Source: Phoronis australis
Taxonomy: Eukaryota; Animalia; Phoronida
Length of the DNA stretch: 64,000 nucleotides
Assembly: GCA_002633005.1 (NCBI GenBank)
Contig: NMRA01000034.1
Span: 643,766 to 707,765, forward strand
Direction of reading: 5' to 3'
In this document: positions 26,016-60,876 of the stretch, piece after piece
Layout: the number at the start of each line of letters is the position of its first letter
How positions within the stretch are numbered: the first letter of the stretch is position 1
The notes under the pieces: generated by a model
The model's input: the letters and a program-made list of their open reading frames with translations, nothing else
What the model was told of the DNA's origin: nothing
Databases searched by the model: none
Translations under genes and position numbers: made by a program

Positions 26016-26069
26016 TTAACCCTTCTGCATAACAACTAAATTGGATACGATCATAACTACATATAAGTC

Positions 26070-27200: not shown

Positions 27201-27201
27201 N

Positions 27202-29559: not shown

Positions 29560-30121
29560 ATCATCACCAACATCATCATCGCCATCCTAGTCATTATCAT
29601 CATCATCCACATCATCTCCACCGTCATCATCACCACCATCAACATCATCATCATTATTGTCATCATCATCATTGCCATCGTCACTGTTAATGTCACTGTC
29701 ACCATCATTATTATCATCATCATGACTGTCATCGTCATCATCACCACCACCACCTTCACCGTCATCATCACCACCATTGTCATTGTCATCGTCACCACCA
29801 CTGTCATTGTCATCATCACCACCATTGTCATCGTCACCACCACTGTCATTGTCATCATCACCACCATTGTCATTGTCACCACCATCACCTTCTTCGTCAT
29901 CATCACCACCATTGTCATTGTCATCATCACTACCAGTCATCGTCATCACCATTGTCATTGTCATCACCACCATTGTCATCATCACAATCTTCATCGTCAC
30001 CATCACCACCATTGTCATTGTCATCATCACCGTCACTGTCACCACCATCATCATCACCACTATCATAGTCGTCATCAACACCACCATAACCATCATCACC
30101 TTCATCAACACCATCACCATT
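29560..30121. repeat. Compound (CAT/CAC/TGT) trinucleotide low-complexity microsatellite
   Basis: Degenerate catcatcaccaccattgt runs; produces overlapping low-complexity ORFs on both strands. Confidence 0.92.
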
Positions 30122-32682: not shown

Positions 32683-35600
32683 CTATTGGGTAAAAACAGA
32701 TCAATCAGCAAAATCATTCAACCTCATAGTCTAAAGGAAAATACAATTTCATCTTGTCCAAAAATTTAGACACCACCGATGTACTATTTAACAAACATGC
32801 AGCCTAAGACACAAGTATATGCAGCCATGTTTGGAAATATTCAAAAGGGAATTATTGAACAACTGTACTATAGAGAAATTTACGTAAAGAAAAAATGTTG
32901 TGGCCGCCCTGCTTGATGAACACTTAATGTTGCTTCATGTTCCTCAGATATGAAAGTGACGTGCAAATAAAAATACCCCAGGGCCCGGGTTCTAATTTTT
33001 TTACTCAAAATGGAATTTGAAGTTATATGTTTGGCATTTTCTATTCACTTTTGCGTGAACTCAAGATAAGTGTCTATTATTCTATGCTCGGGTACGTAAT
33101 GACTTGCACGGATAATTTTTTAGTCCTAGTCCATTAAGGATAAAAATTTGAGTTTGAGCTCGAAATTTCGAGTTTTTACTCGAGTTAGTAGCACCAATAT
33201 AAGGGTTATCAAGTGCAAACTCAAGTGCGTAAACTATAATGTATTCCAGCACAGTGTAATGTAAACTATAATGTATTCCAGCACAGTGTAATGTAAACTA
33301 TAATGTATTCCAGCACAGTGTAATGTAAACTATAATGTATTCCAGCACAGTGTAATGTAAACTATAATGTATTCCAGCACAGTGTAATGTAAACTATAAT
33401 GTATTCCTGCACAGTGTAATAGCCTCTTATCTTGAGTTCGCACAAAAGTAGCAGAGAAATTGCCAAAAATAATTTTGAGTTCATTTCGAGTACAAAGATT
33501 AGATTCCAGGCCCAGGTGTAATGTATTATCTATATTAGTTACCCTATGCAATGTGTATCACGTATTATAACTATGTGTTTGGAATAAGCGTATGACAAAA
33601 GACAAAACTGGCAAAGGTATTTAGCTTACAGTTAGAAAGCAAAATTTGTTCTGGTCTCATTTTGAGATCTGCGCTCACTGACTAAAAACCCGTCAGCCGT
33701 ATCAATTTCAACCAAGGTTTTGATACTTCTTAAAACCTGCGCCACAAAGACACGTAACCAATGGTAAGCAAGGTTTGAAACACCATGATTTGCCAAACGA
33801 TGAGTAAAAACAAATTTCGCATCATAATTGCTTGTTTCAGGTGGATTTTTTTCAGAAAAAGTGATCAACAAAAATAAAATACCGCACCACCGAATAACAT
33901 TTCCAAAAAAGACAGAGCAAAAACAATTATGCTTTTTTGGCCTTACAATATGAGCTTTCTCTCTCATTTGCAAGTGTCTCTTTGTTTCAGCTCATCATGT
34001 GTCAAAGCACGCATCATGCACACAAATGAGTATTACCTCGTTGATACGTTCCTTCTGCAGTTGAATTTGCTTGTTGAGTGACGCTGTCGCCCTCTTGTGT
34101 TGCTGTACTCCACCTACTCTCTCTGTCCGGTCAAGTTGCTCCAGCTCAGCTTGCTGTAACATGTGCAGATAATGCGTGATACACAAGAGCTGAATTGCGA
34201 AGTCACACAAATCACGTCTGCTCATTTTAAAACATTTCAATCCTAAAGAAATCAGCAAAAGACACCTGTTAAAGGGGAACGTTAGGTTTTGAAGGCATTG
34301 CTATTCAATCTCGAATACTTTATTTACCATAAAAAATATTTGGAACGTTTTTAGCCAATTAAATTAATAAAAATAGCACTTTCTTCAACAGAGAGCAAGT
34401 TCCCAAAACATCAGACTGTCCAAAAAGCTTTTGTGCTCTTCTATTCGGATATCTTAACACAATGACTGTAATACCCGCCAATTTTCAGTACCAGTTCTGC
34501 AGCATAACAGTTAAAGCCACTGGCAATTATGATGCCAAAAACTGCAGTAAACTAATACAACAGGAATTCAACCAATCTGACACACAGCGTTTTATTGTAC
34601 CACCTGATAACAGCGTCACACCTCCAATTTGAATAACTGAATTTAATTTTTGGTGACCACCAAACATAACACAAAATTCGACTTTAAAGACTTGTTTTTT
34701 CAAATACGTAAAATAAAATGCAAACAACAAAACACACTACTACATTTTCACATGCTCCTAAAACCAAAAACAATGAAATTATTCTTCTACTACATTTTTT
34801 GCCTACTTACGTGAAAAATGTCAAACTGCAATGATTAGCAAACTTCGGAAAAAAAATGCATAGAGGTAAATGCACTAAATAACGATAGTACATTTATCAA
34901 TTAAGTCCCTCGCAATGCTAACTAAGTCATGACGAAATCGAAAATTACGAAACAACTTAGGAGGGGTGAATCTTTCTATTGAAGCAATCAATGAACTCCA
35001 TTCTCTCCATTGTTGTATTGTGCGTAACGAAGAAAGCTATCTTGACTTATTAAAAAAAACAAAGATGGCAATGCATACGACTTTAAGACAAGAGGGCCTC
35101 CTAATCAGTATAAAAAGTCAACCCACATTGACTGCAATGCAAATTAGGAAAACTGGCAAGACAAGTGCAAACATTTGACAACAGGACAGTCCCATACAGA
35201 AATCTCCTGCATTCTAGAGATAGGGAACCGCGTTGTTACATTGGTCGTGTTTTACAGATGTCCGGCAGAGTCTAAGAGCCATGCCGGCAATTATCACATC
35301 CATGGATACTTGCCATGTGCTGTTGAAGTCGTATCCCACAGCACAACAGTAAAACTTTGCTGGCATTGGAAGGTCATATATGATTAAAGCAGTCCCCAAA
35401 CCCTTCAAAAAGCTAGACAGCAACAAATAACACAAGAAATTTCAATGGCCAAAAACGAGGCAAGAGAACTGCCTAGTGAAAGTTTCAGCATTTTGGGTAA
35501 ATGTCACGAAATCAAAGTGTCACTGTGTACTCTGGGACCGCCTTATTACATCACCATTAAGTGAAATTGAGAATCCACGAGAGATCCAATTCCGTGAATT

Positions 35601-38600
35601 ACGTCCCCCAATTAATAGTCTGTTTATGTTTCCTCCACTGAGAGAGGATATGTAATAGATAACAAGTGAAACAATAGAAGACTAACCTTATCAGCATAGT
35701 CCGCTGCAGCCTGTTGAATCTGTTGTGACTGTATGCTGACAATAGATCCAACCACACTGGCTGACAGTTTGGCCTGAAGGTAAGACATCAACTGTATAGT
35801 TTTTTTACAAAAAAAGGACAAATGATTCAGCATCTTTTCTAAAATACAGTTCGTTAAAGGGTACAATAACTCCAATGTAATTTCTTGGAATAACTATAAA
35901 CTCATTTGTAGGAGATTCAGGTGCGAAATCACAAATTACACAACTATTCAGCGGGACAGGGACAGCCTTTTTTTGCAGAGAACTAAGGCAAAATAAATCC
36001 TCAACAAAGAATCAATCTTTGGTGAGATTTTGTGATTGAAGAGACTTTTACAAAATAAATTCCAAATAACAAAACATCAAAATTACCAAACCCCCCGCTT
36101 CAATCAATACTATTGAATGGACAATAAAAATAAAATACTTACATCTTTCGTAACAATTAAACCAAAAAGCCACTCGGTAGATCTTAATTGTTTAACACAC
36201 GTTTTCACGAACAACTGTCCAAGCAATACCAAATTTATAGAAGACATTCAACTGAAAACATTAAGCAGCTATTGTACCACCCTTTGTCAAGAAAATGTTT
36301 TTTATTCTGGGTTAAGCTCACTTATTGTTGCAAAGTTTAAGTTCAATTTTCCTTGCTCAGAATAGAAATTTTCCGTTTATTGGGAAGAAATGACAGTTTG
36401 TAATTCTATAAGACCAAGATCGATAAGTTGACTTCCCGACTCAGCAGGTTACTTCATGCACCTAACATGAGTACAATCAATAACAAACTGCTTCCCAAGC
36501 CAGAAAATCACTGCTAATCTAAAAAGACCAGTTTTGTAACCATAAGATGTTACAATCAAAATTTAACCTTTTCTAAGGCAGTTATAAGCAGGGCTTGGAA
36601 TGACCAATGACAAAAAACGCGGAAACTTTTACGGCCCAAATCATGCCCGCTAACCAGCTTTGAAATGGTTAATGTGAACCTTTTCTCGACAAAAATCGGG
36701 AGGACTAAAAAAAAAAAAGACTTCACCACCATCAGTAGCATGGGTCTGCGTCCTTTTAGCTGGCCCGTCCACTCCCAACCCCACAAATTTTTGGCTGCAG
36801 AGCGGTAGTATTTGTCGCCGCGCTTAACAATAACACGAGACGCCATTGAAATTCCCACCACGCTGTCCCAGGTGCCCCGGCAATGTTGACAATTTACGTT
36901 CCTCCGAAACATAAAGAGCAACTTCCGCTTTTCGACGTGAACATCGTCTGCAACGCCGCGGTAAGAAAGGAATTTGCCGCGGAAATTTTATATCAAATCC
37001 GATTTTTTTTTACGCGGAAATATTATAAAAAAGCGGACAGCACATTTGAAAAAAGCGGAAATCCACGTTTCCGCGGAAAATTCCAAGCCCTGTATAAGGC
37101 AGGGTTACAGCCACTATCAAAGACAAATTTATTCTAATGGATTTCTGCTCATTCTGTGACCATTTTTTAATCAAATCCAAGACAATGACGAAAATATTAA
37201 AAATATATGCAAAAACATAAAACACATTTTTCACAACAGAAGCAGAACATAGCACAGTCAAGAGGGAAAAAATGTTGCCGCTAAACTAAACCAAACTAAA
37301 TTCCATTTAATTGAACAATACTGAACAAAAGGCCATGCTGTCACAAACAAGGTCAAGAACAGAGAAAATAACAAATAATTTCATGAATTCCACGACAAGT
37401 ACAACAAAATCTCACCAATTTCGGACAAAAATAATTGCATTATTCAAATGCTTTTAACATTGTTGTGAATGCCCACAAATTCTCAAAATATTGTCCAATG
37501 GCAGCTTAACCGTATAGAAACTTAAAGCAATAAAGGATTTGTTTGGTGCTAAACCTTTTAAATCACAAAAATAATAAAAAATAAATTTCACTAACTTCAG
37601 CCATATTGTGTCCTACATTGGTTGGATTTTACTCAAAAAGCATTTTGACCAGCCATGTACATGACCCAATGCAAAAACATGAGGCAACATCAAACTCAAC
37701 AGGGGGCTCCACTGACAGAGACCAGCAACACGTACCATACGGGGTGATAATGACTGTGAACAATTAAGACAATTTCAGGAAATAGCAACTGTCTGACAAA
37801 AACAAGAATACACTGGGCACATCAATAGGAAAGGCTAGAAGTGATAAGCGGAGGAATTTTTTATGTCACTTTAGTAATAGCACAACAGAAATGAAGTGGC
37901 ATTTCGCCACAATTTTGGAAGCAAAAGGTTACATTAATGAATTACATTATTTACATCATTTACGGCATCAAGCATCATTTAATTAGTAAAAATGAACTGC
38001 TTTGTGAAAAGTATAGTCAGTTTCATTCATAGTACTCCTTAGCCAGAAAATACAGTATACAGTGTTGACACTCTAGCTTCCTACGTGGCTCAGGGGTGAG
38101 TGAGGTGGCACTACACCAAAAGATCGTGGGTTCAAACCCTGGCGACTGCAGTGATGTTTCTGTTGTTCTTAGAAAGCCACTCAGTCTGCATATGCTCCAG
38201 TCAACTCAGTTGTGTAGAAGATAAATTCAACTGGGATGTGCCAGTGATAGTGTACCACACTGGGGGTATTGGCAAATCTTCTGAGACTGCAGAAAGCAGT
38301 ATTAACAGAATGACGTAGACGGTTTGTGAAAACTTACTTTTTACAAGCTTCCATGAATGAAAACCAAATTTTCTAACAATGATAAATGTTTACGACTGCA
38401 TGGACTTATTAGTAAAAAAATCATTTTCTCATTAATAATTAGTCTTGTACTGGACTACTTTCTCGACCAGAAAGACTGCTTGAAAACATTAAGAAGCCAT
38501 CAACTCTCTGTAGTTTAACTGAAGACACAGAACAAATCATGGTCTGTACAAAGTATTCCAAATGACTCGCTTTTGTTTTAAGGAAAGTAAACATGACTGA

Positions 38601-41600
38601 TCTTGTTTTCAAAATGTCGTGCAGTTTTTTAGTTGAGCAAATTGCAATGCAGTGTTCATTTACAAATATTTGCAGCCGTCAACATTCCACGATATTATGC
38701 ACAAACTTAGCAAATAAACATCATGTAGTAATAAAACTTATACAAAACCTAGGTTTCATTGTGCAACCCTTATCATACCTACAATTATACAGGTATACAA
38801 ACACCATACATCAGCAGGTGTAATCAGTCATACCTGATGACCAGCCATTTCCGACATTCCACTCATCAAAGCTTTGACACGTTTCTGAAAAACAAAATTA
38901 ATTTTGAACATTATGTAAATACAAGCTGTGTAAATATTCAAACACCACAATAACCCAAGTTTGGTATAACTTAAGTTCTCAAACTTATTAAAATAGTGTT
39001 CATAAGAGAATTTTTTAAAAACTTAAGGCAGATATCGCACATCAGCAAAACCCCAGCCTCCCATTCCCAGATTACTGGTTGCCAAGAGTTTGTAAAAATA
39101 ATTTCGAAACTGTGATGTGCCAACACTAAGATGTCCAAAACTTTTTTCAGCAATGATAACGTAAATCAAAATTTCAGACTTGAGTTGTTTTGTGCAAGGT
39201 TAGGAGAAAGTCCGAGTTTGAATCCCAATCATTTCAGACTTAACTATAGATCAGGTGAAGTGACTAACATGCCGTGTATGAAGACTAATAATTCGTACTT
39301 ATCAGTCTAAAAGTCTTTTGCTATGTGTCAAAATAATAATTGCGACAGTTACACACTGCCTATATAACGGCCATTTTCTGACACAGCAGAGACACAGTGA
39401 AATCCACCTTGTTGCTAGATGATGCTAAGATAGATGGTGGAGTGTTCTGTATTCTTGAACACATATAATGCGGCGGGTTATTTTCCATCATATTTTATAT
39501 TACAACTCTATCCATAAAAAATTATTGCCACTACATTCGCATACACTATACCTCTTCCTCGGCCATAAGCTGTTCAGGAGTTTTCTCCTCTTGCCCACCA
39601 GCCAACCCCGCGGCAACAGCTTTCTTCTTGGCAGACTTGTCATCGGTCTCGTCAAATGATGTCTTCGAGACACCGTAGCGGCGACCGTACTCAAGCAGCG
39701 TGGAATAAATACGGGTCGACTCGTCACGAATCTTTGCTGCATTTGGTCGCCGATAGCGACGCTGTGGCTTGTACACGTCCTTTACCATGGCAACAGTGCT
39801 GACAGCTTTCTCTTTGGTCAACTCCAATTTTTCGTCCTAAAGTAAGATGGAAACAGAAATCACAAATAACAAAAAAGTTGCTATAAGGTTGCTTTTTTAC
39901 CTCATCAAGATACAACAGATAAAATAATGAATGAAAAATGTAACTTTATAATCCCAAAAGCGATATGAAACACAATTCGGTTGGACACTGAAATATTATG
40001 TTATTGTAGGGGAAATCTGCTATGCACAAAATCCATTTTCAAATGACAAGGCACTAAACGTCCTCATGATTTTCGTTCAACAAAACCAATGTGTTATTGC
40101 ATCTGAGTATTTGAAATTAAATAAACAAATCTTGTGGGCACAGTACAAAGATCTAAAACACGTATAGGGTACAAACATCAATACACTAACGACAGTTTTC
40201 GAGTCTCACATACCTCTGGGGTTTTATGATTTTTGCTGAACTGGGAAATGGAAAAGGCACGAATGTAGTCTCCCATCTCGGCTCTACTCTCGATGGCTCT
40301 CTTCACAAGCCACTGTAAGAAACGAGAGATAATGAGGTTGTTGTTATCAAATGTAGTAACTGTAAAATTTCTTTGCACACAGCATGGTGACACATTGTAT
40401 TTGTTTGTTTTCTCAAATTTTGTCAATACACTATTGTACAATCTAACCAATTCTGACAAAAATAATTACCAAAATCACCTTTTTTATTTTTCAAGGGCTT
40501 TTAAACATTTCTGAGAACACCCGGTTTTTCAAAAAATTGTCTGTCGACAGATATGTTACACAAAAAAAGTTTGATACAGCACAAATTTGATGCTACGCAT
40601 CTTTTATGAAAAAAATCTTGTGACAATGGAATTCCACTCGTTTTACTGTAAGGAAATTTTTCTTCCTCAGCTACACAGTTTGCACTCAACCTGTAAAGCT
40701 GTGGTAACCATTTCCAACAACAATTTCTGCACTTGAGTAATGAGTCTACACCAGGGACCAGACTGCACTTCGTTCATATAACTTGGAAAAGGCTTAACAT
40801 TGTGAAGCAGCTGGAACATGGATAAGTAGAGTAACGATAAGTGAAGCACTAATGCCTGGTCACGAAGCGCAACTGATCACTGACTCATCAACCTTTTCTA
40901 TTTCTTAACATTTTACTTGAACCTTTTTTAATAGTTACTTATGAAGGAATAAAGATCGTCTTCAAAGAATACCTAACAATGACCATATGGTAAATCATTT
41001 TAGAAAAATGAATACACGCTACAGTGATGAGCTTTAGAGAGGTTGTCTATCATGTTGCATTTTCATTTTCCATGAGTTTTTCTGTGATATAAAGCGATGT
41101 TCAATCAGTTCACAGATGTCAAAACATGAGAGTGCTGTTCCAGTCACAGGCACTCGAACCTAACATCCAAAAACCACCCACCTGCACCACAGGGTAGATG
41201 TGGATGAAGTCCAAGCCTTGAATCTGATGAGGCTCGATACGATGCGGACACTTCATCTTGGGCAGAACGGCAACAATCTTCTCAGTGAGGGCACTGAACA
41301 GAGACGAGACTATTGCGTACACAACTGCTAAATGTGGCACATTTTTCACAGAGCATTTTCAGCAACTGGCAAGATCACTCAAGATGGTACTAGTGAATGG
41401 CAAGTGCCAACAATACGGGCCTAGGCTAGCAAAAGGGTGTTCACTGAGAAGTACATCTGAAGGCCCCTCAAAGGATTTTACTACACATTACAGGCAGGAG
41501 TGGAACACATTTTAAGGGCTCATTATTTCCTGATAAGCTCAAGTAATCTAAATCAGCCATGACTCCTTGTTCACACTTTGGTCAGTGAGACCTTGCTATG

Positions 41601-44600
41601 CAAAACTAAGACTGACCTGAACTCCACTGACAGGCTTTCCACTGGGAACTAGTTTCAGTTTCATTGATAGTAAATAAATTGCCGATAAGGATCTTTGCCT
41701 TAGAAGACCTATATTATTGTTAGCCGATTTCAAAGACGAGATGCTTAATATATGCACTTAGTAGCAGCTAGTAAAGAATACGTACTCCAGTTGAAAACAC
41801 TGACACAGAAAAGAACAAGAAACTACTGACTTTTGAACAGGGGTAAAAATGGCGACTCTCATAAAAGTTGGCTAGATAGTGCATAACATTTCTGATACAC
41901 TATTATCAACCTTCATGCCCTATAATCCCACTGGTCTGTGTTGCTCTTGAAGGAAAGTCAACAAACCTAGTCTAGCATTGAAACTGAACAAGTTTGAGTA
42001 AAAAACTGAGTGACTATAAATTCAAAACTGACCACATAGTTGTTGAGTTCAGATACACATGATATGCACAAACTAGTCGATAATCCGCTCAGTAAAAACT
42101 AGTCATTAGCAAATACAGTGCCACAACACATGTCGAGCACTTGACCTACATTTTCTGACCAATCGAAGAGTTCTCCTGAAACAGCAGGTCCACATCTATG
42201 TCAACATTGCAGGTAGTGATACACCAGGTCATTCCGCCTACCACCTGTGAAGACAAATGTACACGCTACACTATACTGCAGGAGACGTACCCGTCACAAG
42301 GTACCATACTCGATTATTGAAGTGCACGTGTCTTAAAGCTTTCCTAGAACAAATTTCTGTTATTTTTGATGCACCAAGCAGCAAAAATAGTCTCAGGAAT
42401 ACTTAAGCAGTATAACAAAATAAGACTTAATCACACTCAAACATACGCTCACAAAATGATGAGTGAAAAAGACTTTTTCTGCCGTATTGCATCATCATGA
42501 GAACACAAAACAAAGATCAAATGGCTGAAAGTAGTTGTATTGAATAGGGGTTAGAACAGAATACCAATATTCTCTCGGTGACATAACATCCTTTCATAGT
42601 AACTTAACTCCAGTATAAGAGGAGCATAATCCACGCTGCTTTTACGCTTTGAAAATAGACTGTTAAAAATTTATACAAAGAAAAGTGAAAGGACTAACAA
42701 AAGGTTGACAGTAACCTTAAAAATCTATTCCATTTTAAACAAGATCTCAATTCTAATTTCTGACTGACAGACGAAAAAGGAACACAGTGGTATCCCGATT
42801 ACAATAATCTTTAAGTCAGTAAAGCATATATATCGCAAATTTTCTAGTGTTCAGGTACCTTGTCGAACGGAGAGAGTCCCTTGATACGAGCTCGGAAGTA
42901 ACCAGCGGCCAGAAGTAGGTCAATTGTCTCGTTCAACTTCACATTCTGTTCTTCATCTTCGCGAGTTTCGACCTGACGAAAAATGACATGCCAAATCAAC
43001 CATCACGTAAACCAAAGTTTGACTGCTGGAACAGTTAGGAGGGTGGAGATTGGTGAAGTACTTGCAGCAGGATACCAAGATCTACCCCTGACGTGTTTGC
43101 TTAGCAACAGATTAGCACCCACTCTCCACTACTGAGGATCATTTTGACCAAGATTAAAAAATAAATATTGCTTTATAACCAAACAAGATCATTTTTGCAA
43201 ACACTAACGAATGGTCTTGTATTTTCCAAAAGGGTTGCTTCTTTTATAACCCCGCAATTAAATTACAGCTTGACAAAAATGAATGGTTGAAACTCTGTCA
43301 AATACGTTACTAAGGGGCGTGTCATAGAATGAAATTAAGATTTGACGTTTAAGTGACATGCTACGTAACATCAAGTAAACGTTTCACGTCACCAATCAAA
43401 CATATGTTTTTTCAAGACGCCACCACGAGATCTGTTTCCAATGATTTAGAATTTAAGCCAAGTTGCTGTCTTGAAATGAAAGTCGGAGGTTCCATTTCAA
43501 CTTGTATGTACCATTTATGTGTCTCTTATGCCTGTGCAACTTTCAGTCATTTTGGTCTATCGTATTCGAGATGCACTTTGAACGCGACTTTGAATTCTTG
43601 TGATTTATCACAAACTTTAGACATCATTTGAAGGGGCATATGATTGTAACGTATTTGACTTGTTTTTAATGTAATCGTAATGACAGTAATAAAAGTATGG
43701 CACGTGACCAGTAAGAAATATCAAAATAAAAATGATTAAGCAATTTGCAAACACCTAGATGGTAACATAGTTGACGTGAAACTATTTATGTCGTAATCCT
43801 TACTCCTGAACATAAAATTTTAGACACCCCCTTTGGGGACTCGGTTCATGGTCAAGTACGGAATTACCGGATGAGTTACAGATGGACAATGGCAACTGCT
43901 GGTTCATCATGGAAGGTTAGTAATCGAGTGAACCAAGTCCCGTGACCTGTCTACAACCATTGTGACACTTCGGCCTTTTGGGAAGATTTTTTGTTTTGAT
44001 CGCGAATTAGTTGCAAACTAGCAGTCGCTGGAGCTGAGCACTGCAACTGCTATCAGGAGAAAGAACAATTGCTAATGTTTTGTTGAATCCCTATTGAGAT
44101 TTGTGTATGATATAGATGCCTAAAATTGAAGCACCATCCCCTGGAATTCCTAATCTCAAGTGCCATACCCTGTAGTATAATATATAGTGTATTGGGGACG
44201 ATCAGAAACTAAGGACATCTGTGGTTATCACCTGTAGTTGCAAAATGAAATGCTTCATAACCTTCCTTCGATGTTATTTGTTGTATTTTTAATTAAGCAA
44301 CTTTTCACAGAGGATGTACTACCACTTGTAGGGCGAGCTATACCACAGGCTATAGGCCATAGGCGTAAACGGTAAAGTCCAGTAAGACCGACAGTAATAG
44401 TAAATTGAATTTTTGTGAATATGGGGTCCTGCAGATTAAAGGCAGACACATTTTTGATGATGCATAACCACATGACATAAATTTGGACACTAAAACATTG
44501 CCGAGCCTAGGCTCTCAACTTCAGCTATCCCAAATCCAAATAAAATCTGCGTGCACCTCCCTCACACTACTAAATGCATTAACCTCCAAAGCCTCATCAT

Positions 44601-49098: not shown

Positions 49099-50159
49099 CG
49101 GTTGGATTCACATGAAACATAGATATCATGCTTTATACACCGTTCTCCAAAACACTTTTAGTCTGGAAGCAGGGCTGAACCTGGATTTACCGGATAAAAT
49201 TATTTCTTTGCCGTTTCATCTAGCTTAGGGTTAAGTGAACATGATTTAGGGGGTTGACCATTCGCAACTATTTTTTTTAAATTAAGCAAATTAAGGCTGC
49301 CATTATGCAAAATTCTATTTTTGCTTATAACTTCCTTACCAAGCATGATTACCTTTGCCTAGGCTACATAAAACAGCAAAGAAAAACTCTACCCCGCAAA
49401 TCCAGGTTACTGATGTAAAAATACAGTCTTTGGCTCCCAGACTATTTTGCATCTGTGGCTATCAAAAATTGGACTCAATGATTTTGATGGAAAAAATATA
49501 AAGTTGCATAAAGCGTAAACGAAACGTTAATTTAGAAAACCGTATCAGTGTTTTTGAGACTTTTTCTTGAATCATTTATAACATATGAAAATTGGTCATG
49601 TTGGTGTTCTTACTGTTTTGCAATGAATGTACCTTTCTTTTTGCCAAATTTTCCTTAAAAGGCAGTCACCGGACCTAATTAGTGGCAGACTGGTATAAAG
49701 TAAAAAAATCTAAGTCTACGTTATATGTACTTTCAGAAAATAGTGCCGAGTTGAATTCTCGCTTGCCGAATTTTACTGCCAGCCCCATGACGAATTCAAT
49801 CAAATTGACCATGAAAACAACCAAACGAATATAGTAAGTAATATTTTAATGGTAGTGTTGGAGACGCATATTCTTCCCTAATGTCTTAAATGCAAATTGT
49901 ACGCCCTGCAAAACGAACGATGACACTAAAATGATGTCAACTAGTCCACTGGTAAAGAGAGAGTGACATGTCCAACTGTACAGAAGTAGTATTCCGCAGG
50001 TGCTCCGAACTCCCAGGTCTGCCAAAGTCTGTAGTGAATACCTCAAGAAGTATTTCTTTCTATTTGAGAATAAAAGTAGGCCTCCTTTCATGAAACTCAA
50101 CTTTCGGACCTTAAACTGTGAGCTGGTCTTCCACTTTTGTTTTTGTGTATTCAAAAACG

Positions 50160-50689
50160 TCATTGTCTAAGAAATCTCCTCGTTTTCATTAGTTGCTCAA
50201 ATTCCGGGCTCATTGTCAACTTTGAATCTGGTATCACGAAACGTTCAGAAAACTTTGGATTTGTTTTGCAAACACAACTTTTATCTGGATGATAGTAATA
50301 GTTGCGAGGTGTATCTTCTTGCGCTTTAGAATTAGTGTTATAGAACAAATGGCTTTCAAACACTTTTAGCACCGCCTCATCACAGTCGTTAAATGGAATT
50401 TTACAGCCTTGGCATCTCTTCATGTTCCCGTTTCTCTTGGTCAAAACATATTTGCGTTTCTCAGATGGCGCTACTGGCGTGTTGCTCGCAGCACATGATG
50501 TGGCGCGAGCTCCTGATGTCGGTCGGTTCCATTCACGCTTGTGGCTTCCTGAAGAGTTCTTCTCGCTGGAGGTGCTCTGCCGATAGGCATTTTTCTGACT
50601 GTCAAACGCAACAGCGTTCTCCATCAAATGCCGACGGCTGCTCTGGAGCACGCCGCCCGCATTGTTGTTTCTCTTTACCTCTTTCTTTT
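50160..50689 (-). CDS. 2CARD gene terminal exon with zinc finger (RCQGC-x37-H-x4-C)
   Basis: TTCATTTTTAG acceptor, phase 1, open to TGA at 50160; KYVLTKRNGNMKRCQGC...NYYYHPDKSCV..TNPKF. Confidence 0.78.
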
Positions 50690-53600
50690 CTAAAAATGAA
50701 AATAACGAATAACACTGGACAATACAATATAATTAACAGGCAAAATTAACGTTTGGTAGCAAATGTTCCAAGAATTTTCAAAATGTTGTCAACTGTGCAT
50801 TAACAATACCTATATTGGAATGTGTTTGTGACAGGTTTTCTTGACATACATTTAGCTTAGGTATTTCCTGTATGTGTTCAATTTAAAGTTATTAATTGCT
50901 ACCTCTTGACATGTATTTACAAATCATCCCAGCTCTAAGCTAATCTTCCCCATTGGTGAGTTTTATATTTGGAGCACATTCTGATTGGTCGAATAGGTTC
51001 ACTTGCATGCTGTATGTTAGATCTTTATACTATCACATCAGAAGCTTTTAATACATCATACCGAGCACAAGTATTTTTCTCTATGAACAACCTCGGGTTT
51101 TATCTTTGTACAATATAAACCCACAACCTAACGCTAACATTAACAACTATGGACTTTTTGATAGTTAGTACAACACTTTATCAAGAACAAAACGGGAATT
51201 GACTTACTTTTACCGCCACTTTGGTATTCTTTGAATGATTCCTGTGAAAAACATGAAATGTCCTAAATAACAAAACAAAGTTCAGTTTTCGGTCATAACA
51301 GTATTTGCTCAGGTAGGTCTAGACGTCAGGTTATTGGTCGTTATTACGACGCAAGTGTCCCAATAGCATTATTTCCACAGATGCAACTCATTTTTATGAG
51401 GACTGTAAATTTTGAACAACGATTTTGGCCGCTTTTCTTCATGCGATTGACCTTTTAACGTCAAATATGCAAAGGATTGTGGGATAGCGGACACCCCGAA
51501 CAGCACGCCATCAGACAAAAATATTCAATTATCTGCAGAGATCATTTCATTTAAGTCATATTTCAAGCACATTTCAGAAGCTCACATCGACATGGATCTA
51601 TTCAAAATCATTTGCCAGCTTACTGAGCAGACGATACTTTCTGGTTTCTGGATAAGGGACGCGCGTCGATTTTTGCTATCAGTAAAAAGTTCAATAGATG
51701 TTCGTTTTATGAACGAGGTATTTTATACCATACCTTAAAGTTTGAATATTTTCTTTGGTGAAAGATGTTCCAGAGGTATTGCAGTAACTTAGCAAATCAC
51801 AAAAATAATTGGTTGCTTTATTATTCTTCACAACATGAAGACAAAATGGCATTCAGTTGTTCAAACTCTTAGAGGAATTTTTATATGAGAGTTGCTTTCA
51901 GAAAAGCGCAAATTTTGCGAGATATCGCTGTGTCTCAAAAGCGAAGTACGAGATATCACCATCGCTCGTGTGAACCCAATGCTGAAAGCGCCCCTAGACG
52001 TATTTTACGCTCAAGTTTCCAGTGCTAACCTGAGTGAGATGCACGGCTCCAAGCCTGCCGAGTACTCCGCCATCGTCCTCGCAACTGTAGTCCATATGGA
52101 TTGATTCCGCTGTAAAAAAGGCATAGGCGCTCCGTGTGTGTCTTTGGATGGTTGTTATAGTTTTAGTTTACAAGCTTGACATTCTCAACAGACGGGCACA
52201 CGCTGACACATTGAGATAACTATTGTAAATACATGTGTACAGAAATGCTTTCACATTATTCGTCACAAGGCAAGAGTTGTGAAATATTTTTGAAATTACT
52301 TTAATGCTCAAAAACTTCAAGAACCAAAATTAACAAGAATTTAAAAGCTACTGAAATGGAAGCCTCTTCATATTACCCTAAAAGGAAAACAAAATGATAC
52401 CATCGTCCTGGCTTGACGACTGCCGTTCATCGGAGGTGAGATCGGCGATGTAATCCCTCCCGGCAATTTCTTCTGCCAATGGCCTGTGTTTACATTTTAT
52501 TAGAACGGACATAAACTTAGCGAACCAGTTGATATTATAGCGATGGATGAGAGTTAGCAGCAGTCGAACGGCGTTCATGTTACCGCTGTTGGTTTTCTCG
52601 CACTCTATCTCCTCTCTGAAAGAAGAACAACGTTTTAAAAAGTTCAAAACACGTTCAAATTGGCACTTGATGTTGGATTTGCTTGGGATGTGATTTTGTA
52701 ACGGTCCAAAAGAATTGGTGACCATGACCATAAGTTTATGAAGAAATTTTATGCTTCGACGCACGAAATGCCGAAAACTTACCGGCAACTGAGAATGGCT
52801 GGAGAATTAGAAAAGTCAACAAGATATGATGCAGAGAGATGAAAAATGGCACTTTTCTGATAATGTTGTGTCTTTCTATTAAATAATAACCACACTTTTG
52901 GAAGTGGCCTATCTTTTTCTGTCAGCATCTTCAACAAGTTGAAGTTTGACGTACCCGAAGAAGTTCAAGATGATTGAGGAATGATTGTTATTATATGTTT
53001 TTACTACACTTTTTGCTTTGTTTAGTCACCCGTTTAGAACGCGGAACGATCTAAAAATATCACTGAACTATCACTATTTCTTTAAAATGCAACCCTGTGC
53101 GTATTTACGCACTTTAAAGTGTCAATGTTTGAGTTTATTAAAGGAGAATGCCACCCGATTTAATTAGTCTTTTTTGCCGTCTTAATCGGTCTATATCCAC
53201 ATCGCCTCGCATACGGTCGACTTTACCTTGCCAAGAGGTGTCGCGTTAACAGATGAGGAAGGTGAGAAACGACGCTAGCGACGTCAGTGGTTCATATGCA
53301 GAGTGAATGCCGCTATGTTGCCGTGCATCGTTCCCGCTTGTCCGAACTAAGCAGCTGTGAGGAAAGCGTGTATATCTTTCTTTTTACTTCCTCGAGAGTC
53401 CGAAATGCTTAGGAAGTGGCTCATGGTAGTGAAGAATGAAACGTACGCTGTAAATAGCAAGTATGAGGCCGTGAAACATCTCCGTGTCTGTGGCCTGCAG
53501 ACTTCGAAAGTGCCTGATGAATGCCGGCTCACCAAATAACTCCATAAGTTCCGTTGTCTGAGCTTGTTCACGGCGCTTCTCTAGTATTTCTTCATCACTG

Positions 53601-56600
53601 TATTCCTGTTCGAGTTGATAGCTTGTAAAACTTAACGACCTACCTGCGAAGTCGGGACTGATGAGCTCTAGCTCGTCCTAAGTCGGGATTGCGAGTTGGT
53701 ATGTTGGCGTATATTACTGAGCGTTCTGTTTCAAAATGAATTATTCTCACCCTAACCAATACTTATATCAAACTGAAACAAAGACTTTCTCATTAGATAT
53801 GCAGTTTGTAATGCCTTTGGAGTGTTCGTGAGTGCAAATGATTTGAGAAGCCAGCAATGAATAAATCACTGCGTTACCGGCTTTAGGTGCAATAAAACTA
53901 ATTGATGGGACACCTAGGCCGTGTGAGCTCATGCTAATTTAGTGTTTGCTGGCAGAAACTGTTGTGAAACAACTCGATTTCCATCCCACGGCCAGGTGTT
54001 AGGGGAATCTTTATTTACATTTACATTACTCAAATAATGATTGACAATGTACAACTTTAATTCTGCCCTGACGGTGCTGTGGCAGAAGCGGAACTGAAAT
54101 CGCGGCCCCCGACGAGTAAGTAGATTTGCAGTTTCGTGGCTAATTCACCAACATAATCACGTGCACATTACTTTGGCTCACAAGTATAATTCTTTCTTGA
54201 TTGGAAGTTTAGTTTCCACTGAACTTTGGCTGGTTTATGTTCGTGATGTCTGATCAGTTTCCGAGCAACTGGCCGGGATAACGAGTCAGTCCGGCCGCCC
54301 GCGACGGGCCTGATGGGGCTCCGAGCCACTGGCCAGGATAACAAGCGTTTTGTGTTTAGAACTCAAAAAATCACAAGTCTAAACAACACAGATCTAGGTT
54401 CTCCTGTCTGTATCTCACGGAAAATACTTCGAAATTATCTCCGATCAGACCCCAAACTCCTGCTACGGACCTTATTGGCCTGCCGAACTTTGTAGGCTAC
54501 GGTGTGTCCAAATACCAATAAATCCGTAAGAGCGAAATAAAACAACACGTTTTTATAAGAACTCGGTGTACTTTTAAGGGTTTTACATCGAAGTTTGATG
54601 ATTTATCGGTGTTAAACGATGACATCAAGAGATAAGCTGACACCAGTAACCCGTGTTGTGAACTGCTGAACAGACTGCGTGTGAAACCGATGACGTCATT
54701 GGACAATTTCAACACCTCCGTCTGCCGTCAGGTGTCAGGTAACGCAACCGTACGTGTCGTTATGGAGTAGAACTACTCGATCTAAATTGATACAAATTAG
54801 GTTGTTTTTTGGGTGGAATGCTCCTTTAAGAGTTTGCCAAGCACGGGTTAACAGCAACATGAGTTTTGGTGCGAGAAGTGAGCCTTAACGGAGATTTAGC
54901 GTATCTTTAATTCACGGATGATTTTCGAATAACCCATTATTATCACTATGCTGAAATTAAACGCTTTAGAAATATTCAGTAAGCGCATTTAGCGTGCAGT
55001 CTAAGGGACAAAGGTTTCTACTCCCAAGTTGAAAAACGGACGTCAGCGCGAACATGACACGGGACTGGTGGCGGCACTATTGAATTACAAGCCTGTCAGT
55101 TGTTAACGCGTGCAGGTCTAGATTAATGCGCTAACCTGTGTAAACACGATGACAGGCTTGGACTTCCACACGACGACGAGGCGAGTCTTGGCGCTGATAG
55201 TTGGGCGGTTTAGGAGGAAATCATTGCTGTCCCATGGAAACAATGTTAATACAGTATAGACGAAGATGGTCGTCATTTGCTGCGGTAGTTTTTTGTAGGG
55301 GCAATACCAGAAATTCGAAAATCAAACATAAAATTAGTTTCATTTTGAAAAAAAGGATGTGCAGACGCAAGATAATGGCGAGATGAGGTGCTTAGCTTGA
55401 TACGTTAGATCTGACAATGCTCTCCGAACAAGAGCATTGTCAGATCTAACGTATCAAGTTCCGAATAGTCGCTTGCAGTCAGCGGCATCACTTTGATGTA
55501 CAGGTAAATTTTACACACCTACCTGCTGCGTGCATTGAGAAGTTCTTCGGCCATACAAAGACTCATAAACTCGACGTCAAGATTGACTTCTTTCTCGATT
55601 TCTGGTGCTTTCAGGTCTATTAAGGCCATTAATTCTGTATACCGCCAGTAATCTTTGTGTGTGAGAGTATTCCCCTTTAGCAAGTGAACGAGCATAGTGT
55701 ATTCTAAAGAGATATATCATATACCGGTGAACCACAAAGCAACAAATTATAACCATCCTTTACAAGCAAGCAAAATTTACTTAGTTGGTTGTTTTAGCAA
55801 GGACAAGAATTGGTTTTGTCTAGATGACTGAAGTTACTGACAATGATACAACGAAAAAAGACCACGCGATTGAAATTTCAAGGGCCATTTCCTTACTTAC
55901 ATTTTGAGCATGAAATTCATAGCCAGTACAGAATACTGGTTTCAATTTTCTTGCTGCAATTGAAGTTAGGAAGCGTTGGCCAATCCTGATTTGTTTTCCA
56001 TCCTATTCTTACCTCCCTATTCTGAATGGCTACATTGAGAATGGAACCATTTTCTATCATAGCGTGAGAGATTTAAGTGGGTGCTATGAATAGGCATTGA
56101 GGACCAGGGGCTTGTTCCAAGAAACTGACTTAAGTTCAAGACTTAAGTCTAAGATTTGTCTTAACTTCCGAACTTTGAAACTTCCACATTTGAAAAGTTG
56201 GTCAAAATTGAGACAAAACTTAGGTCATACACTTAAGTCAATCTTAAAATATTTTTCTTGATTTGGTTTTGAGACAAATTCAACTTTCATTTTAAAATTT
56301 ACTAAAATTTAAGATTTGTCTTAGCTAAGTCAGTTTTGTTGGAACGGGCCCCAGAGCACTTAATTTTTGTAATAAAGGATGTTCTGTTTACCTCGACAAC
56401 CCTAAAAGGTTTTGAGCAAGTTTGAACACTCTTTACAAAGTCTGCTCAATCGGCGAGAGTGACTAACGTGTTGTGCAAGTTAATCAATCACAAGTTTGGG
56501 GGAAACACCTTTCACGAACCGCTTTGCGATACAGTGAGGATTTATTTTAGACGAATATTTTTTTTCTCAGAAGGTGTACTAAAAAACCAGTTTTGAGTGA

Positions 56601-59600
56601 AACCACTACACATGGTCGTGGAACACATGCTTAGTTTGTGTGATTGAGAAACCTGGTTTATAATTAATTGGTATTTTAGGCAGTGAGTATGAATTTTGTG
56701 GAGGACAAAAAGATAACTTATCGTGCTTGTAACCATGCGCATGTAAGTTGCGGAACTGGGTAAAACTGGAGAGCAAATTTCTGAAATATGTGAGTAAAAC
56801 ATAATTTATCGTAACCAAAATGGTAGACGGGTGGGTGAATGCAATTAACACTAACTACCAAATGGCACTTATTATTTCAGAATAGACAAAAATGTACGTG
56901 TGCACCCAGCTTAACACGTTCACAAATGCAAAAGACAGTTAGTTGCCCATATGCCTTACTTAAAAGCCATTATACTACGTGCACTCCAAATAGGGTCGTC
57001 CCGGATTACACAGCAATAAATCTGTCCTATGTTCTGGAGGCAAAAAAGCGAGTTGTTTTCATTGTCCTAGTTTCATGTCTTCGATTGATCTGGGAAGGCG
57101 ACGAACTTAACGTCACGCATCCACGGATACTCGATTTGTCATGCTTATCCAAGCTTCTCCCGTCTTGGAACAACGTTTGCAGAATACGACAACAACAAAG
57201 AACTGCAATGGCGCGAAATACAAAAGTGACTGGCGGATGTACCGCAAGATTCGAGTGTCGCTTTGTAAATCGGGACGGCCCTATCTTGCTTGGTACTGTT
57301 TAATTAGTGTATCACCATTCTGGCAGAACTACGATTGGTCGTTTTGCCACACTTAATTGGTATTCATACACAAATTGCCGAATATCCCATCGCCGTGAAC
57401 TTTTTTACGCTGTTCAGCGATAAGCTGTCGGGATCTGTTTTATCCACGTGAACACAGAAAGTAGCTGCTGCCAATAGGTTGCAAAACATACTTACTTTGT
57501 TCTTCCAGGGATTCGATGAAAGCCTTAAACCATCCGGGGTGTTGGCGCCCTGATTTCAATTCCCCCAATAATGCGCTGCACGCTTTAGTTTTAGTTACCC
57601 GTCCTTCATTAATCATATCCTTTACGCCTAAACAAAAGAGGTCGTGAAATTATGACTAAAGCATAGTAAGTCGGAACACTTTGGATCGCAAGAAGGGCAA
57701 AGTTAACATGCAAATGCGAAGAAGTTTCACCTACTTATTAATAGTATTTTTATCAATTGTCTACACTCTGTTTTTATATTTACAGACGCATTGCTCAAAG
57801 CGAAAACAGGTAGAACACAGTTTGGCTTAAATTTTGCATATCCAACTTTCGTGGTTGCGATGCCATTGACGCAAAATGCAATTTCACCTGAGCCAATGAA
57901 TCTCATGTCACCAGCTAATGGGGTTTCACATCATTTCAGTTCTCATCAGAAAAGAAACGAGTGACGTGACAGTAGCGCTCCCATGTGAGCTGCGTCCTGA
58001 AAAGCAGGGCTGCGTTCCACAGATCCATGACATTAGCGATGTGCGAAAAATCTTCGCTTACGGAACGAGTACTTCATATTCTATCCCATAATTTAACAAC
58101 CCAGACTCTAGCACCAATCATTTCAGCGGCCGATTTTTCGAAAAATGCTAGCGAGGTCTCAAGCATACTTGCGAACTAAAGCACCAGCGTGATTTTGCGT
58201 GGTCTTGCGTTTTCGCTAGTTTCTTGCGCCTACACAACGCACCCTTGGTATTCAAAGAAGGCAATTTGCGGTACGGGAAGTGTACGCTCGTAAATGAGCT
58301 GTTAGCAGCTGATTACTGGATAGATAGAAACAAGAGTTTTCACCAAAACAGCGCAATGCAGTAGTAAAAGCTATAGCTTTCACGGATTGCAATTAAATGT
58401 CAACTTCTACCGATTTTACAACTTTCATAGAATCTGGAACTTGCTAATTTTAGTGAAATTCTTCCAGAAATTTGTAAGCTTTAATTTCGTCAAGGGAAAA
58501 TGGTTGCGCTGCTTGTTAAAAGGACATAATCACTGTTTTTGTGTCCAAAAATCATTTTGGGGATGGGATAGAATTGGCTTTATCAGAGACATGAAACGAT
58601 ATAATTCGTTGAGTTTTTATGATTTTATTACAAATCGCCAATTCTACCGTTGTCTGTCTGACATTCGCTGAACTCAAGAGGGGTGATTTTGTCAATTAAG
58701 TACACTTAAAATACCGTCACTTATCGAGCGGGTCTCACTTTCGACACCAGAGCGTTATACTGCGACAGCAGGGTGCGGAGGTTCGATTCCTCGCTGATAA
58801 TGTCCCTCGAAATGACCTTCCGCCGGTTGAACGAGAGCTACATACCAAATTGATGCTAGTGCGTCACATAGTGCGATTCACAGTTCACATGCTTGCTAAA
58901 ACGTTTTAGCTATCGCTTTAGTCAGAACTGCTAGCATTTTTGTCCCTTATGTGATCCTAGTATTTGCTATTTGTTAATGATTCAGTTGTATTCTTTAAAA
59001 CAGCGATAGGTGTCCAACGACTTATTGAAGGAAGTGAGGTGAAATGTAAAACTGGAAACGATGTTTCTTATCAGCTGAATGAACGTTTTGTGTTCCGAAA
59101 GTACATCAAGCGGTTTCGAAAGTTGTGGTCCAGTGCAAGTTGAGTTCAGAAAGCTGTTTGCGTTCCGTAGCCGTTATAATCTAGCGAAAAAGTAAGTCCC
59201 CTCGAGATATCACCATGCATTGCCTCTCTGGTTCCGGTGCCGACTGAGCTACCAACGTGCAGGCTACTGACCACCTAGCGACACGCAGGGAACCAGCGAG
59301 CATGCATTGCAAGCAAAGCACGAGACCACACTAGTTTTACTCGCGAGATTCTCGCATTGAATAGGCTTAAATTAGAATAAGTTTGTTTCTAACTACTGAT
59401 CGTAAAAGTATGTGCGCCATTCGAAACGTTTCATTTCCAACCAAAAGATTTCTTTCAATTGTGAAATCGAAATATTGTGCAACAAGAATGAGCGCACAGA
59501 AAAAGTGTGAAACATTAATTTCACAACAAACCGACCAGACTCAACTCGAAGGTATGAAGACCTGGCGAGAGAGAACAACATTATTATAAGACTATCATAT

Positions 59601-60876
59601 TTCCACAGAAGCATGCCTTCTTGACTGTCAGTTAGAAAACCCAAGGAACTGATTACTGAAATTTTCACAATTTAGGTCGATATTGTTAATACCCGTAAAT
59701 CATTTTCCAACACTCTCGGTTAGAAATCTTAAGCTTGGCGAATAAAACGGCTAAAATTCGAACTAAAGCGAGTTTTCGTATCTTGTATATCGAAACGAAC
59801 CACAAGTTTTAATTCGGGTACATGAAATCACCAAACTCCATGAAAAGTGGGAAAATCAAAACTATAATCATTCAGGAATCTTGAATTAGTTCAAATCCTA
59901 ACCAATCAAAAATGGTAAAAAATCAGCAATTATGAGAAAAACATTTTGTTGACTTATGCAGGCAATTAAATGCTTATGAAATATCCATTTACATTGTACA
60001 CTTAATTATCTGTGTATTGTGGGGGAAGCAGTTTTAATCATGTAAACTAAAACGTGCGTAAATTATAACTACATGCCGTTATCATCATCACGCTAGTAAC
60101 GGTAGCATCATTGTCATTGCCGTGGGGCCAAAGGTAGGATAATATCAGAGGCCCCAATGCTCCGTGCTCTCACTGGCAAATATTGACAAAAGGATAAAAA
60201 ATTGTCTGGAGTATGTTTATCATCCATTACTTAAACGGTTTTTTGTGACACCCCAATCTTAAGATTAATCTTAACCCGAGATTGTCGTGGGAAATATTGT
60301 AAGTTTTTACATATACTACTGTAAATATGATAGTTGGTTTAAACTTATTCTACAACTAGTATCTAAATAAAGCAGGAATATCAGAATTTATTCACATCAG
60401 TCATGTTCGGTCAAGATTGTCACAACTAAGTGGGGTAAGTTGCGCTCTAGTTAGTCTCCAGACACCACTCAAACCTAGCGACAACTCGTTCCAGGGGTGG
60501 ACAGCACTATATAAGTAACATGGCTTACTAAAAGTACACCATAACTTAGCACTACACCTGAGGCCTCCTGCGGATTACATTTAAATTAAGCGTTTCCCAC
60601 GTTTTATAAGCGTGCTGGCCTATACAGAAAACGTAACATTGATCAATACACATTGGCAATCTATATTTCGTCTAGTCATCAGCCTGGCACAGGAAAGGAC
60701 TTACCGCCTGATATAACTACACCTCGAGAAATTAGATTACTTAAAATGTCCTTTGCCTTCAGAAATGTTTCTATAACATCTTGGTATGCTTCGATGACCT
60801 CAACGTATTTCAACTGTTGGGCGTCCATGCCACGTTCTTTCCTATCAGGGGGTACTGTCGTTTGCTGACGTTTCAT
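50160..60876 (-). CDS. 7-exon gene: tandem RIG-I/MDA5-like CARD-CARD + linker + C-terminal C3H (PARP-finger-like) zinc finger, ~447 aa, no helicase
   Basis: Exons 60705-60876, 57496-57627, 55523-55703, 52401-52615, 52030-52109, 51208-51241, 50160-50689 all have GT-AG boundaries with matching phases (1,1,2,1,0,1); total 1344 nt, no internal stop. CARD motifs GWFKAFIESLEE and EEIECEKTNSGNMNAVRLLL...NWFAKFMSVL..CKHRPLAEEI. Confidence 0.82.
51208..51241 (-). CDS. 2CARD gene exon 6 (ESFKEYQSGGK)
   Basis: TTTTCACAG acceptor, A|GTAAGT donor; phase 0 to 1 bridges exons 5 and 7. Confidence 0.72.
52030..52109 (-). CDS. 2CARD gene exon 5 (AESIHMDYSCEDDGGVLGRLGAVHLTQ)
   Basis: TTTTTTACAG acceptor, CAG|GTTAGC donor; phase 1 to 0. 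Confidence 0.78.
52401..52615 (-). CDS. 2CARD gene exon 4 (EEIECEKTNSGNMNAVRLLL...WFAKFMSVL...SSQDD)
   Basis: TTCTTCTTTCAG acceptor, G|GTATCA donor; resembles RIG-I CARD IQAEKNNKGPMEAA...GWFRGFLDAL. Confidence 0.9.
53142..54825 (+). mobile_element. Non-autonomous Kolobok-like DNA transposon in intron 3 of the 2CARD gene
   Basis: TTAA on both sides (53138-53141, 54826-54829), inverted termini AGGAGAATGCCACCC / GGGTGGAATGCTCCT, THAP remnant near the left end. TTAA target duplication with an N-terminal THAP domain is characteristic of Kolobok elements. Confidence 0.75.
53315..53539 (+). pseudogene. Decayed THAP zinc-finger coding remnant
   Basis: MLPCIVPACPN*...SFFLLP...RKWL...LRVCGLQ matches the THAP pattern C-x4-C...F..P...W...VC..H, with an in-frame stop and loss of the final His. 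Confidence 0.75.
55396..55458. repeat. Perfect 28-bp inverted repeat with 7-nt loop
   Basis: cttgatacgttagatctgacaatgctct - ccgaaca - agagcattgtcagatctaacgtatcaag. Confidence 0.95.
55523..55703 (-). CDS. 2CARD gene exon 3 (KYTMLVHLLKG...LIDLKAPEIEKEV...LLNARSR)
   Basis: CTCTTTAG acceptor, AG|GTAGGT donor; end of CARD1 and start of CARD2. Confidence 0.88.
56108..56351. mobile_element. PIF/Harbinger-like MITE
   Basis: Termini gggcttgttccaagaaactgactta / taagtcagttttgttggaacgggccc, flanked by CAG...CAG. Confidence 0.75.
57496..57627 (-). CDS. 2CARD gene exon 2 (GVKDMINEGR...HPGWFKAFIESLEEQ)
   Basis: TTTTGTTTAG acceptor, A|GTAAGT donor; RLR-type GWF..F..SL motif. Confidence 0.9.
58715..58855 (+). 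mobile_element. SINE-like fragment with Pol III B-box
   Basis: ggttcgattcc B-box; no closable tRNA cloverleaf visible. Confidence 0.4.
60705..60876 (-). CDS. 2CARD gene exon 1 (MKRQQ...MDAQQLKYVEVIEAYQDVIETFLKAKDILSNLISRGVVISG)
   Basis: ATG at 60876 (alternative ATG 60828); donor G|GTAAGT; CARD helices 1-2. Confidence 0.85.

Follow-up and report, generated by a model that had tools for sequence, protein, structure and literature searches.

Can the signalling end of a RIG-I-like receptor (RLR) be separated from its RNA sensor and joined to a different sensing module? This question is raised by a gene on the minus strand of a 64,000-nucleotide stretch of the Phoronis australis genome (contig NMRA01000034.1, positions 643,766 to 707,765 of the forward strand; the whole of this stretch is called the window below, and positions are counted from its first letter). 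An original prediction, made from the letters of the window, read the gene as seven exons with GT-AG splice sites and matching phases that give an intact frame of about 447 codons, in which paired RLR-type CARDs are followed by no helicase or C-terminal domain (CTD) and by a zf-PARP-like zinc finger. The splicing, the CARDs and the lack of a sensor helicase are all borne out below: the gene is transcribed, its CARD exons match the CARDs of MDA5, its last exon encodes a finger with a predicted PARP1-type fold, and the relatives of that finger make it likely that the exon came from a transposon.

The spliced frame is 1344 nt long, 447 amino acids plus a stop, with no internal stops; all six introns run from GT to AG, and their phases are 1, 1, 2, 1, 0 and 1 (the exons are listed in Table 1). 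The CARDs were identified exon by exon as follows: exon 4 matches Pfam CARD_2 with E 3.6e-12, and its best match in the PDB is MDA5 CARD2, residues 156-202 (whole-chain E 6.4e-08). Exon 2, tested as a single exon, matches CARD_2 profile positions 50-79 at E 0.0025, which is under the curated cut-off, and its sole PDB match is MDA5, best on CARD1 residues 56-84. Exons 1 and 3 gave no domain match when each was scanned singly. The CARD exons therefore match MDA5 CARD1 and then CARD2, in that order. Exon 2 extrapolates to CARD_2 profile positions ~39-80, and RIG-I exon 2 encodes residues 36-80 (PMC2860555, PMC3900705); this agreement in the placement of the two exons argues for descent from an RLR gene. 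As encoded, the CARD motifs are GWFKAFIESL and EEIECEKTNSGNMNAVRLLL; the first of these, predicted as GWF..F..AL, has no "AL", and the predicted EEI..EK..G...A..LL is read as the second.

Does a helicase follow these CARDs elsewhere in the locus? A motif scan of the locus found none, and none of the 270 downstream minus-strand frames matches a helicase or CTD family in Pfam (frames of at least 40 aa were scanned, there being 465 of at least 30 aa; three low-complexity frames were omitted and one frame overlapping the stop was added). The same scan detected five frames of CCDC93, which serve as a positive control, and one reverse-transcriptase frame. Exon 7 and the sequence downstream of it gave no RIG-I_C-RD match in Pfam. 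The next gene on the same strand is CCDC93, whose coding exon at 42971-42860 lies ~7 kb past the stop at 50160. No DExD/H helicase and no CTD follow the CARDs, as the original prediction had supposed, and the gene falls outside the RLR family proper.

RNA of organism A was examined in four runs from two studies, as contigs in X1 and as stranded raw reads in X2, X3 and X4 (~18-19% of each raw run was read), with three reads from two starts as the threshold for a joint. Five of the six joints of the gene were seen. Joints 1-2, 2-3 and 3-4 are among the joints listed by a search that had 81 more beyond its listing; each is present in an X1 contig and in raw reads (X2, X3 and X4 gave 1, 3 and 0 reads for joint 1-2, 4, 10 and 2 for joint 2-3, and 3, 1 and 2 for joint 3-4). 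The two joints that lead in frame to the finger exon, 52030/51241 and 51208/50689, for which the prediction had called for RNA evidence, were both read: joint 5-6 by six reads in two runs (two in X2 and four in X4, none in X1 or X3) and joint 6-7 by three reads from two starts. The first mates of the joint reads lie on the + strand, as expected for a minus-strand gene. X4 has reads over exons 4, 5, 6 and 7 alike, and exon 7 with at least 520 nt of 3' untranslated region (UTR) is covered at depth 0-12, almost only in the orientation of minus-strand RNA. Transcription thus reaches the finger exon, as had been claimed. An X2 "joint" at 50778/52379 consists of two ~20-nt matches whose flanks are loose, and we set it aside as noise from repeats.

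An AG sits 2 nt upstream of the first ATG, so an upstream exon is possible; the real start may also be the second ATG, at 60828 (M17). If exons 5 and 6 were skipped together the frame would be kept (409 aa), and if either were skipped singly the protein would end before the finger; no such joint (52401 to 50689) is among the joints listed. Exon 6 and the start of exon 7 together encode a basic cluster, KKKKEVKR, at amino acids 271-278.

What has taken the place of the sensor? The C-terminal finger carries the ligand pattern C364-x2-C367-x37-H405-x4-C410. A search of 1.84 billion proteins gave 14 matches to it, of which 13 are real homologues (29-44% identity); the other, P0007, is a repeat-rich chance match and was dropped. 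The putative zinc ligands C364, C367, H405 and C410 are invariant in 14 of 14 alignment rows, and the residues invariant across the homologues are C, G, C, E, Y, H and C in order. Neither the finger nor any of the 13 homologues matches Pfam zf-PARP (PF00645) at E up to 1, and by this criterion the finger represents an unnamed family with no Pfam model. A structural model (pLDDT 86.7) was compared with 48,161 chains: the top seven matches are all fingers of PARP1 or DNA ligase III, with Z 7.4-5.0 and rmsd 3.1-5.5 over 81-87 residues, and the next match has Z 3.8. The model and the Cys3His ligand set therefore predict a PARP1-type zinc-finger fold; of the earlier zf-PARP-like assignment the predicted fold stands, and membership in the Pfam family does not. 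Many of the PDB entries matched are fingers bound to DNA, nicks or breaks, and the finger region has 19 K+R against 11 D+E. Run against PDB sequences, the finger profile gave no real match, a word-seeded protein search with the finger gave nothing (a weak negative), and in a weak search of longer proteins the profile matched only P0011. The finger was present in none of 43 viral candidate loci and in one of 61 metagenome candidates (L001).

The company kept by the homologues suggests where the exon came from. The finger is C-terminal in 13 of 13, and a PHD-like motif precedes it in six and in a cluster mate of a seventh; among the six without that motif, five are short frames whose architecture is unreadable. 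The one full gene model of this type, jellyfish P0020, encodes a Ulp1 protease (E 2e-13), a PHD-like motif and the finger. Metagenome contig L001 (213-2848, + strand) has a multi-exon Ulp1-like, PHD and finger arrangement in the P0020 layout, like the tail of a transposase; its Ulp1 call comes from two weak similarities to P0020, in the His motif (E 0.10) and in the Gln/Cys motif (E 0.002), and the five pieces of its Ulp1 region, scanned singly, gave no Pfam match. The nearest Atlas model to the finger is an 888-aa SWIM-domain protein cluster found most often in cnidarians (TM 0.67); the scores of Atlas feature searches were under 0.9, and these searches serve as leads only. Tails of Ulp1 and PHD are known from Ginger1 and Mutator transposases (PMC2836005); Rehavkus and MULE elements carry PHD or SWIM fingers (PMC6446971). 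Since the finger's relatives stand at the end of Ulp1-PHD and SWIM proteins, which is the tail type of DNA transposases, the last exon is likely transposon-derived. The prediction of an RLR N-terminus with a different C-terminal module was right as to the CARDs and the missing helicase, and had overlooked the transposon-type family of the finger. Exon 7 has no multi-copy read signal at 90% identity, unlike the elements in the introns, and its nearest relative in the proteins searched has no more than 44% identity, so the capture appears to be old.

The same finger ends a second death-fold protein. In the sea cucumber Holothuria leucospilota, HOLleu_44210 (P0016/P0006, annotated "hypothetical protein") consists of a death fold, a linker and a C-terminal finger that is 34% identical over 92 aa to ours. 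On five Logan contigs the frame of P0006 runs without a break. The death fold of P0016 in its Atlas model has TM 0.84 to the N-termini of echinoderm NACHT proteins and 0.70 to the FADD DED; a single-sequence model (pLDDT 38) was uninformative in fold searches, and the Atlas model was used in its place. Because this death fold differs in type from RLR CARDs, the sea-cucumber fusion probably arose separately; in a finger tree with one of 12 branches supported, a shared origin of the fusions has p-AU 0.077 and is neither shown nor rejected.

Is the protein maintained by selection? The X1 contig, which is an allele or close paralog, differs from the window in exon 7 by 13 listed coding differences, seven of them synonymous, and neutral simulation predicts 3.1-3.6 synonymous changes (P 0.017-0.039; 23 of 25 differences are listed, in one within-species comparison). 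Amino acids 350-447 have three synonymous changes and one replacement, the fewest of exon 7, and the one change at 238 replacement sites compares with 10 at 303 UTR bases (P 0.03). These counts hint weakly at purifying selection, and overall we think it likely that the protein is under selection.

The origin and action of the gene can be imagined as follows. The 5' half of a duplicated RLR gene would, quite probably, have been spliced onto the terminal exon of a Ulp1-PHD or SWIM-type transposase gene, the rest of which decayed; helicase and RNA-binding tail would so have been replaced by the linker and a finger of PARP1 fold. The weakest step of the scheme comes next. The fingers might align wherever viral or mobile DNA is nicked or broken or has a free end, and the 130-residue flexible linker would give the CARD pairs room to oligomerise and to seed a partner with a MAVS-like or caspase CARD. 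Free RLR CARDs signal constitutively, without ligand (PMC2860555), and oyster RIG-I binds MAVS via its CARDs (PMC5557890). No helicase represses the CARDs here, and the protein would be kept in check by its low expression and by the basic cluster, which would park it in the nucleus. By analogy with AIM2, we tentatively prefer, at somewhat less than even odds, a sensor whose CARDs cluster and signal when it binds DNA ends, in which case the immune alarm would plausibly be raised on DNA rather than on RNA.

A number of observations weigh against this picture. CARD1 is divergent and below the Pfam cut-off, and word-seeded and profile protein searches, both weak, found no relative that has CARDs and finger together; a word-seeded search with CARD2 likewise found nothing, a weak negative. 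Foldseek also ranks PARP1 and ligase III fingers first, at E 0.011 or worse, which is not significant; the top Z of 7.4 is below 8, and identity to those fingers is 9-19%. Canonical zf-PARP fingers have the spacing C-x2-C-x28/30-H-x2-C, from which that of our finger differs. A shared fold by itself shows no function, and DNA binding and signalling are predictions. Transposon origin remains a matter of inference because no transposase, DDE domain or terminal inverted repeats (TIRs) were seen beside any finger homologue; in the window there is no second finger, PHD or Ulp1 remnant, including around exon 7, where no convincing TIRs were found either. The selection test compares one haplotype or paralog with 13 changes, and the difference in change rate between finger and linker is not significant (P 0.11). 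Expression is low and RNA support thins toward the 3' end: joint 6-7 was read in X4 only and in none of the other three runs, joint 4-5 is not among the joints listed at the threshold, and no read set spans the full transcript. Finally, some X2 reads lie in intron 4 on the same strand; a transcript that kept this intron would encode only 240 aa, with the CARDs and without the finger.

Could the protein be a damper and not a sensor? A divergent CARD pair might bind RLR or MAVS CARDs without seeding filaments, and the finger, together with the basic cluster, would hold the complex at a distance from mitochondria. The weak Pfam match of CARD1 agrees with this, active CARDs without repression would be costly to keep, and a human splice variant of RIG-I with damaged CARDs is dominant-negative (PMC2860555, PMC3900705). 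We consider such a decoy unlikely, for both CARDs are full length with their WF motifs kept, the duck variant did not inhibit (PMC3900705), and a decoy would need no conserved zinc finger, yet the four ligands are retained and changes are fewest in the finger.

The low depth, the thin 3' joints and the intron-4 reads would also suit a neutral chimera, in which a truncated RLR duplicate splices by chance into a transposon remnant and is transcribed at a low level, no function having been selected; mobile DNA abounds at the locus, and our weak searches found no relative of the same architecture. Such a chimera would be an ordinary product of exon shuffling. It too seems to us improbable, given a 447-codon frame that is intact despite several insertions in the introns, a capture that looks old, and the excess of synonymous changes (P 0.02-0.04) together with the difference between finger and UTR.

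A further reading takes plant NLRs with integrated domains as its model: the finger would interact with proteins, as a mimic or binder of one from a transposon or virus, and the CARDs would be freed once it is engaged or the linker is cut. Ulp1 and PHD, the usual neighbours of the finger, are protein-handling domains, the acidic linker is long and exposed, and the second fusion, that of the sea cucumber, would suit a bait recruited more than once. In the solved structures matched, however, this class of fold binds DNA, and bait domains tend to evolve fast, yet no part of exon 7 is better conserved than the finger; we therefore hold this reading to be quite improbable. That the CARD exons belong to a normal RLR with helicase exons elsewhere, exons 5-7 coming from another transcript, is very hard to credit: joint 4-5 is missing from the joints listed, but CCDC93 follows closely on the same strand, there is no helicase motif or Pfam helicase match in 50 kb, no loose read ends at the exon-4 donor point to another partner, the phases of exons 4-5-6-7 fit, and these exons are covered together in X4.

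Table 1. Features of the gene and its surroundings (positions in the window)
Feature	Position	Strand	Content and evidence
Exon 1	60705..60876	-	aa 1-57, first half of CARD1; GT donor, phase 1; joint 1-2 in X1, X2, X3
Exon 2	57496..57627	-	132 nt, phase 1/1, 44 codons; second half of CARD1; Pfam CARD_2, MDA5 match, joints
Exon 3	55523..55703	-	End of CARD1 and first half of CARD2; joints 2-3, 3-4
Exon 4	52401..52615	-	Second half of CARD2 and start of acidic linker; Pfam CARD_2, MDA5 CARD2
Exon 5	52030..52109	-	Acidic linker; RNA cover in X2, X4; joint 5-6
Exon 6	51208..51241	-	34 nt; joints 5-6 and 6-7 in reads
Exon 7, coding part	50160..50689	-	Basic low-complexity linker, finger domain, stop; one-strand RNA cover
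Cys3His finger, predicted zf-PARP fold	50163..50456	-	aa 350-447; homologues, model, structure matches
3' UTR, at least 520 nt	49640..50159	-	One-strand RNA cover to edge of stretch examined; ATTAAA at 49850
Multi-copy 1.7-kb TIR element, intron 3	53138..54829	.	19-nt inverted ends beginning TTAA; read pile-up, loose ends at both borders
CCDC93 gene	~33998-43002	-	Exons by Pfam

The introns hold mobile DNA, as had been predicted: a TIR element lies in intron 3 (Table 1), and introns 1 and 2 have further multi-copy stretches with read pile-ups on both strands. The intron 3 element is transcribed on both strands, from other copies; we take it to resemble a non-autonomous Kolobok, with what is presumably a KolX-like remnant at 53387-53677, where there is no Pfam match. 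Elsewhere in the window there is an intronless UDP-glucuronosyltransferase (UGT) gene at 981-2573 (+ strand; Pfam UDPGT, E 6.5e-106); a cluster collection contained neither its protein nor the two exon-7 open reading frames. A reverse-transcriptase fragment lies at 25675-26067 (- strand; RVT_1, E 4.1e-10), and beside it, at ~26080-28182, a duplication spaced by 1.1 kb that contains an N at 27201 and may be an artefact of the assembly. A trinucleotide-like low-complexity tract occupies 29550-30250, and a 32-nt minisatellite lies inside a short inverted-repeat element at 33197-33452.

How does this gene compare with known systems? Among the top matches of broad queries to titles and abstracts of the open literature (subscription journals lie outside this scope), no description was found of CARDs with a PARP-type finger or of this finger family, and a strict query matched no paper at all. 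AIM2 and IFI16 (PYHIN proteins) consist of a death fold, a flexible linker and a nucleic-acid-binding module, and signal by clustering on DNA. Our gene resembles them in its death fold, linker and putative nucleic-acid module, and clustering on DNA is what we propose for it; it differs in having two CARDs and not a PYD, and a zf-PARP fold and not a HIN domain, and is of unrelated origin (the five exons scanned, 1-4 and 7, gave no PYD or HIN match in Pfam). Invertebrates are not known to have PYHIN proteins, and if the finger binds DNA the gene would be a candidate answer to how such animals detect foreign or damaged DNA, as well as a compact natural test of rerouting the RLR/MAVS pathway to DNA. 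With PARP1 Zn1/Zn2 and the DNA ligase III finger (PDB 3odc, 3od8, 1uw0) it shares the predicted fold and the Cys3His ligand set; it has no Pfam zf-PARP match, a longer hairpin, H-x4-C spacing and no catalytic domain.

Host-transposase fusion genes, which Cosby and colleagues are said to have described in 2021 (work cited in PMC8700633), reportedly arise when a domain of the host is spliced to a nucleic-acid-binding domain that stems from a transposon. Most known cases are reportedly transcription factors of vertebrates; in our gene the host contributes a module for immune signalling. HOLleu_44210 is alike in its death fold, linker and C-terminal finger, and different in that its single death fold is NLR-type and DED-like, compared with the RLR tandem CARDs here; it is worth study in itself, and with it a finger family without a Pfam model has been recruited to two different death folds. 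It is conceivable, although we find it doubtful, that marine invertebrates repeatedly built DNA-end sensors from a death fold and a transposon PARP-type finger, and that our gene reroutes the RIG-I/MAVS RNA pathway to broken, viral and mobile DNA, independently of cGAS and AIM2, with a transposon's domain turned against mobile DNA.

The gene is like Ginger1 and Mutator (PMC2836005) and Rehavkus (PMC6446971) in that relatives of its finger end Ulp1-PHD proteins (P0020, L001) and SWIM proteins; the available excerpts do not mention this finger for those elements, and here Ulp1 and PHD are absent and the finger alone is kept. A helicase-less DED+CTD RLR-like protein of the sea star Patiria (PMC8662601) also joins a death fold to a nucleic-acid-binding module, and retains the RLR CTD that is absent here. 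To RIG-I and MDA5 themselves the gene is tied by tandem CARD_2-type domains in MDA5 order, by the placement of exon 2 and by exon shuffling as a route, and it is set apart by having no DExD/H helicase and no CTD. Invertebrate RLRs swap their N-terminal domains by exon shuffling and keep the sensor (PMC8998645), so that the shuffling described in the available text alters the output end and retains the RNA sensor, whereas here the CARD output is kept and the input is replaced. The gene would combine two known processes, RLR domain shuffling and host-transposon fusion; its interest lies in the swapped sensor end and in the occurrence of a similar fusion elsewhere.

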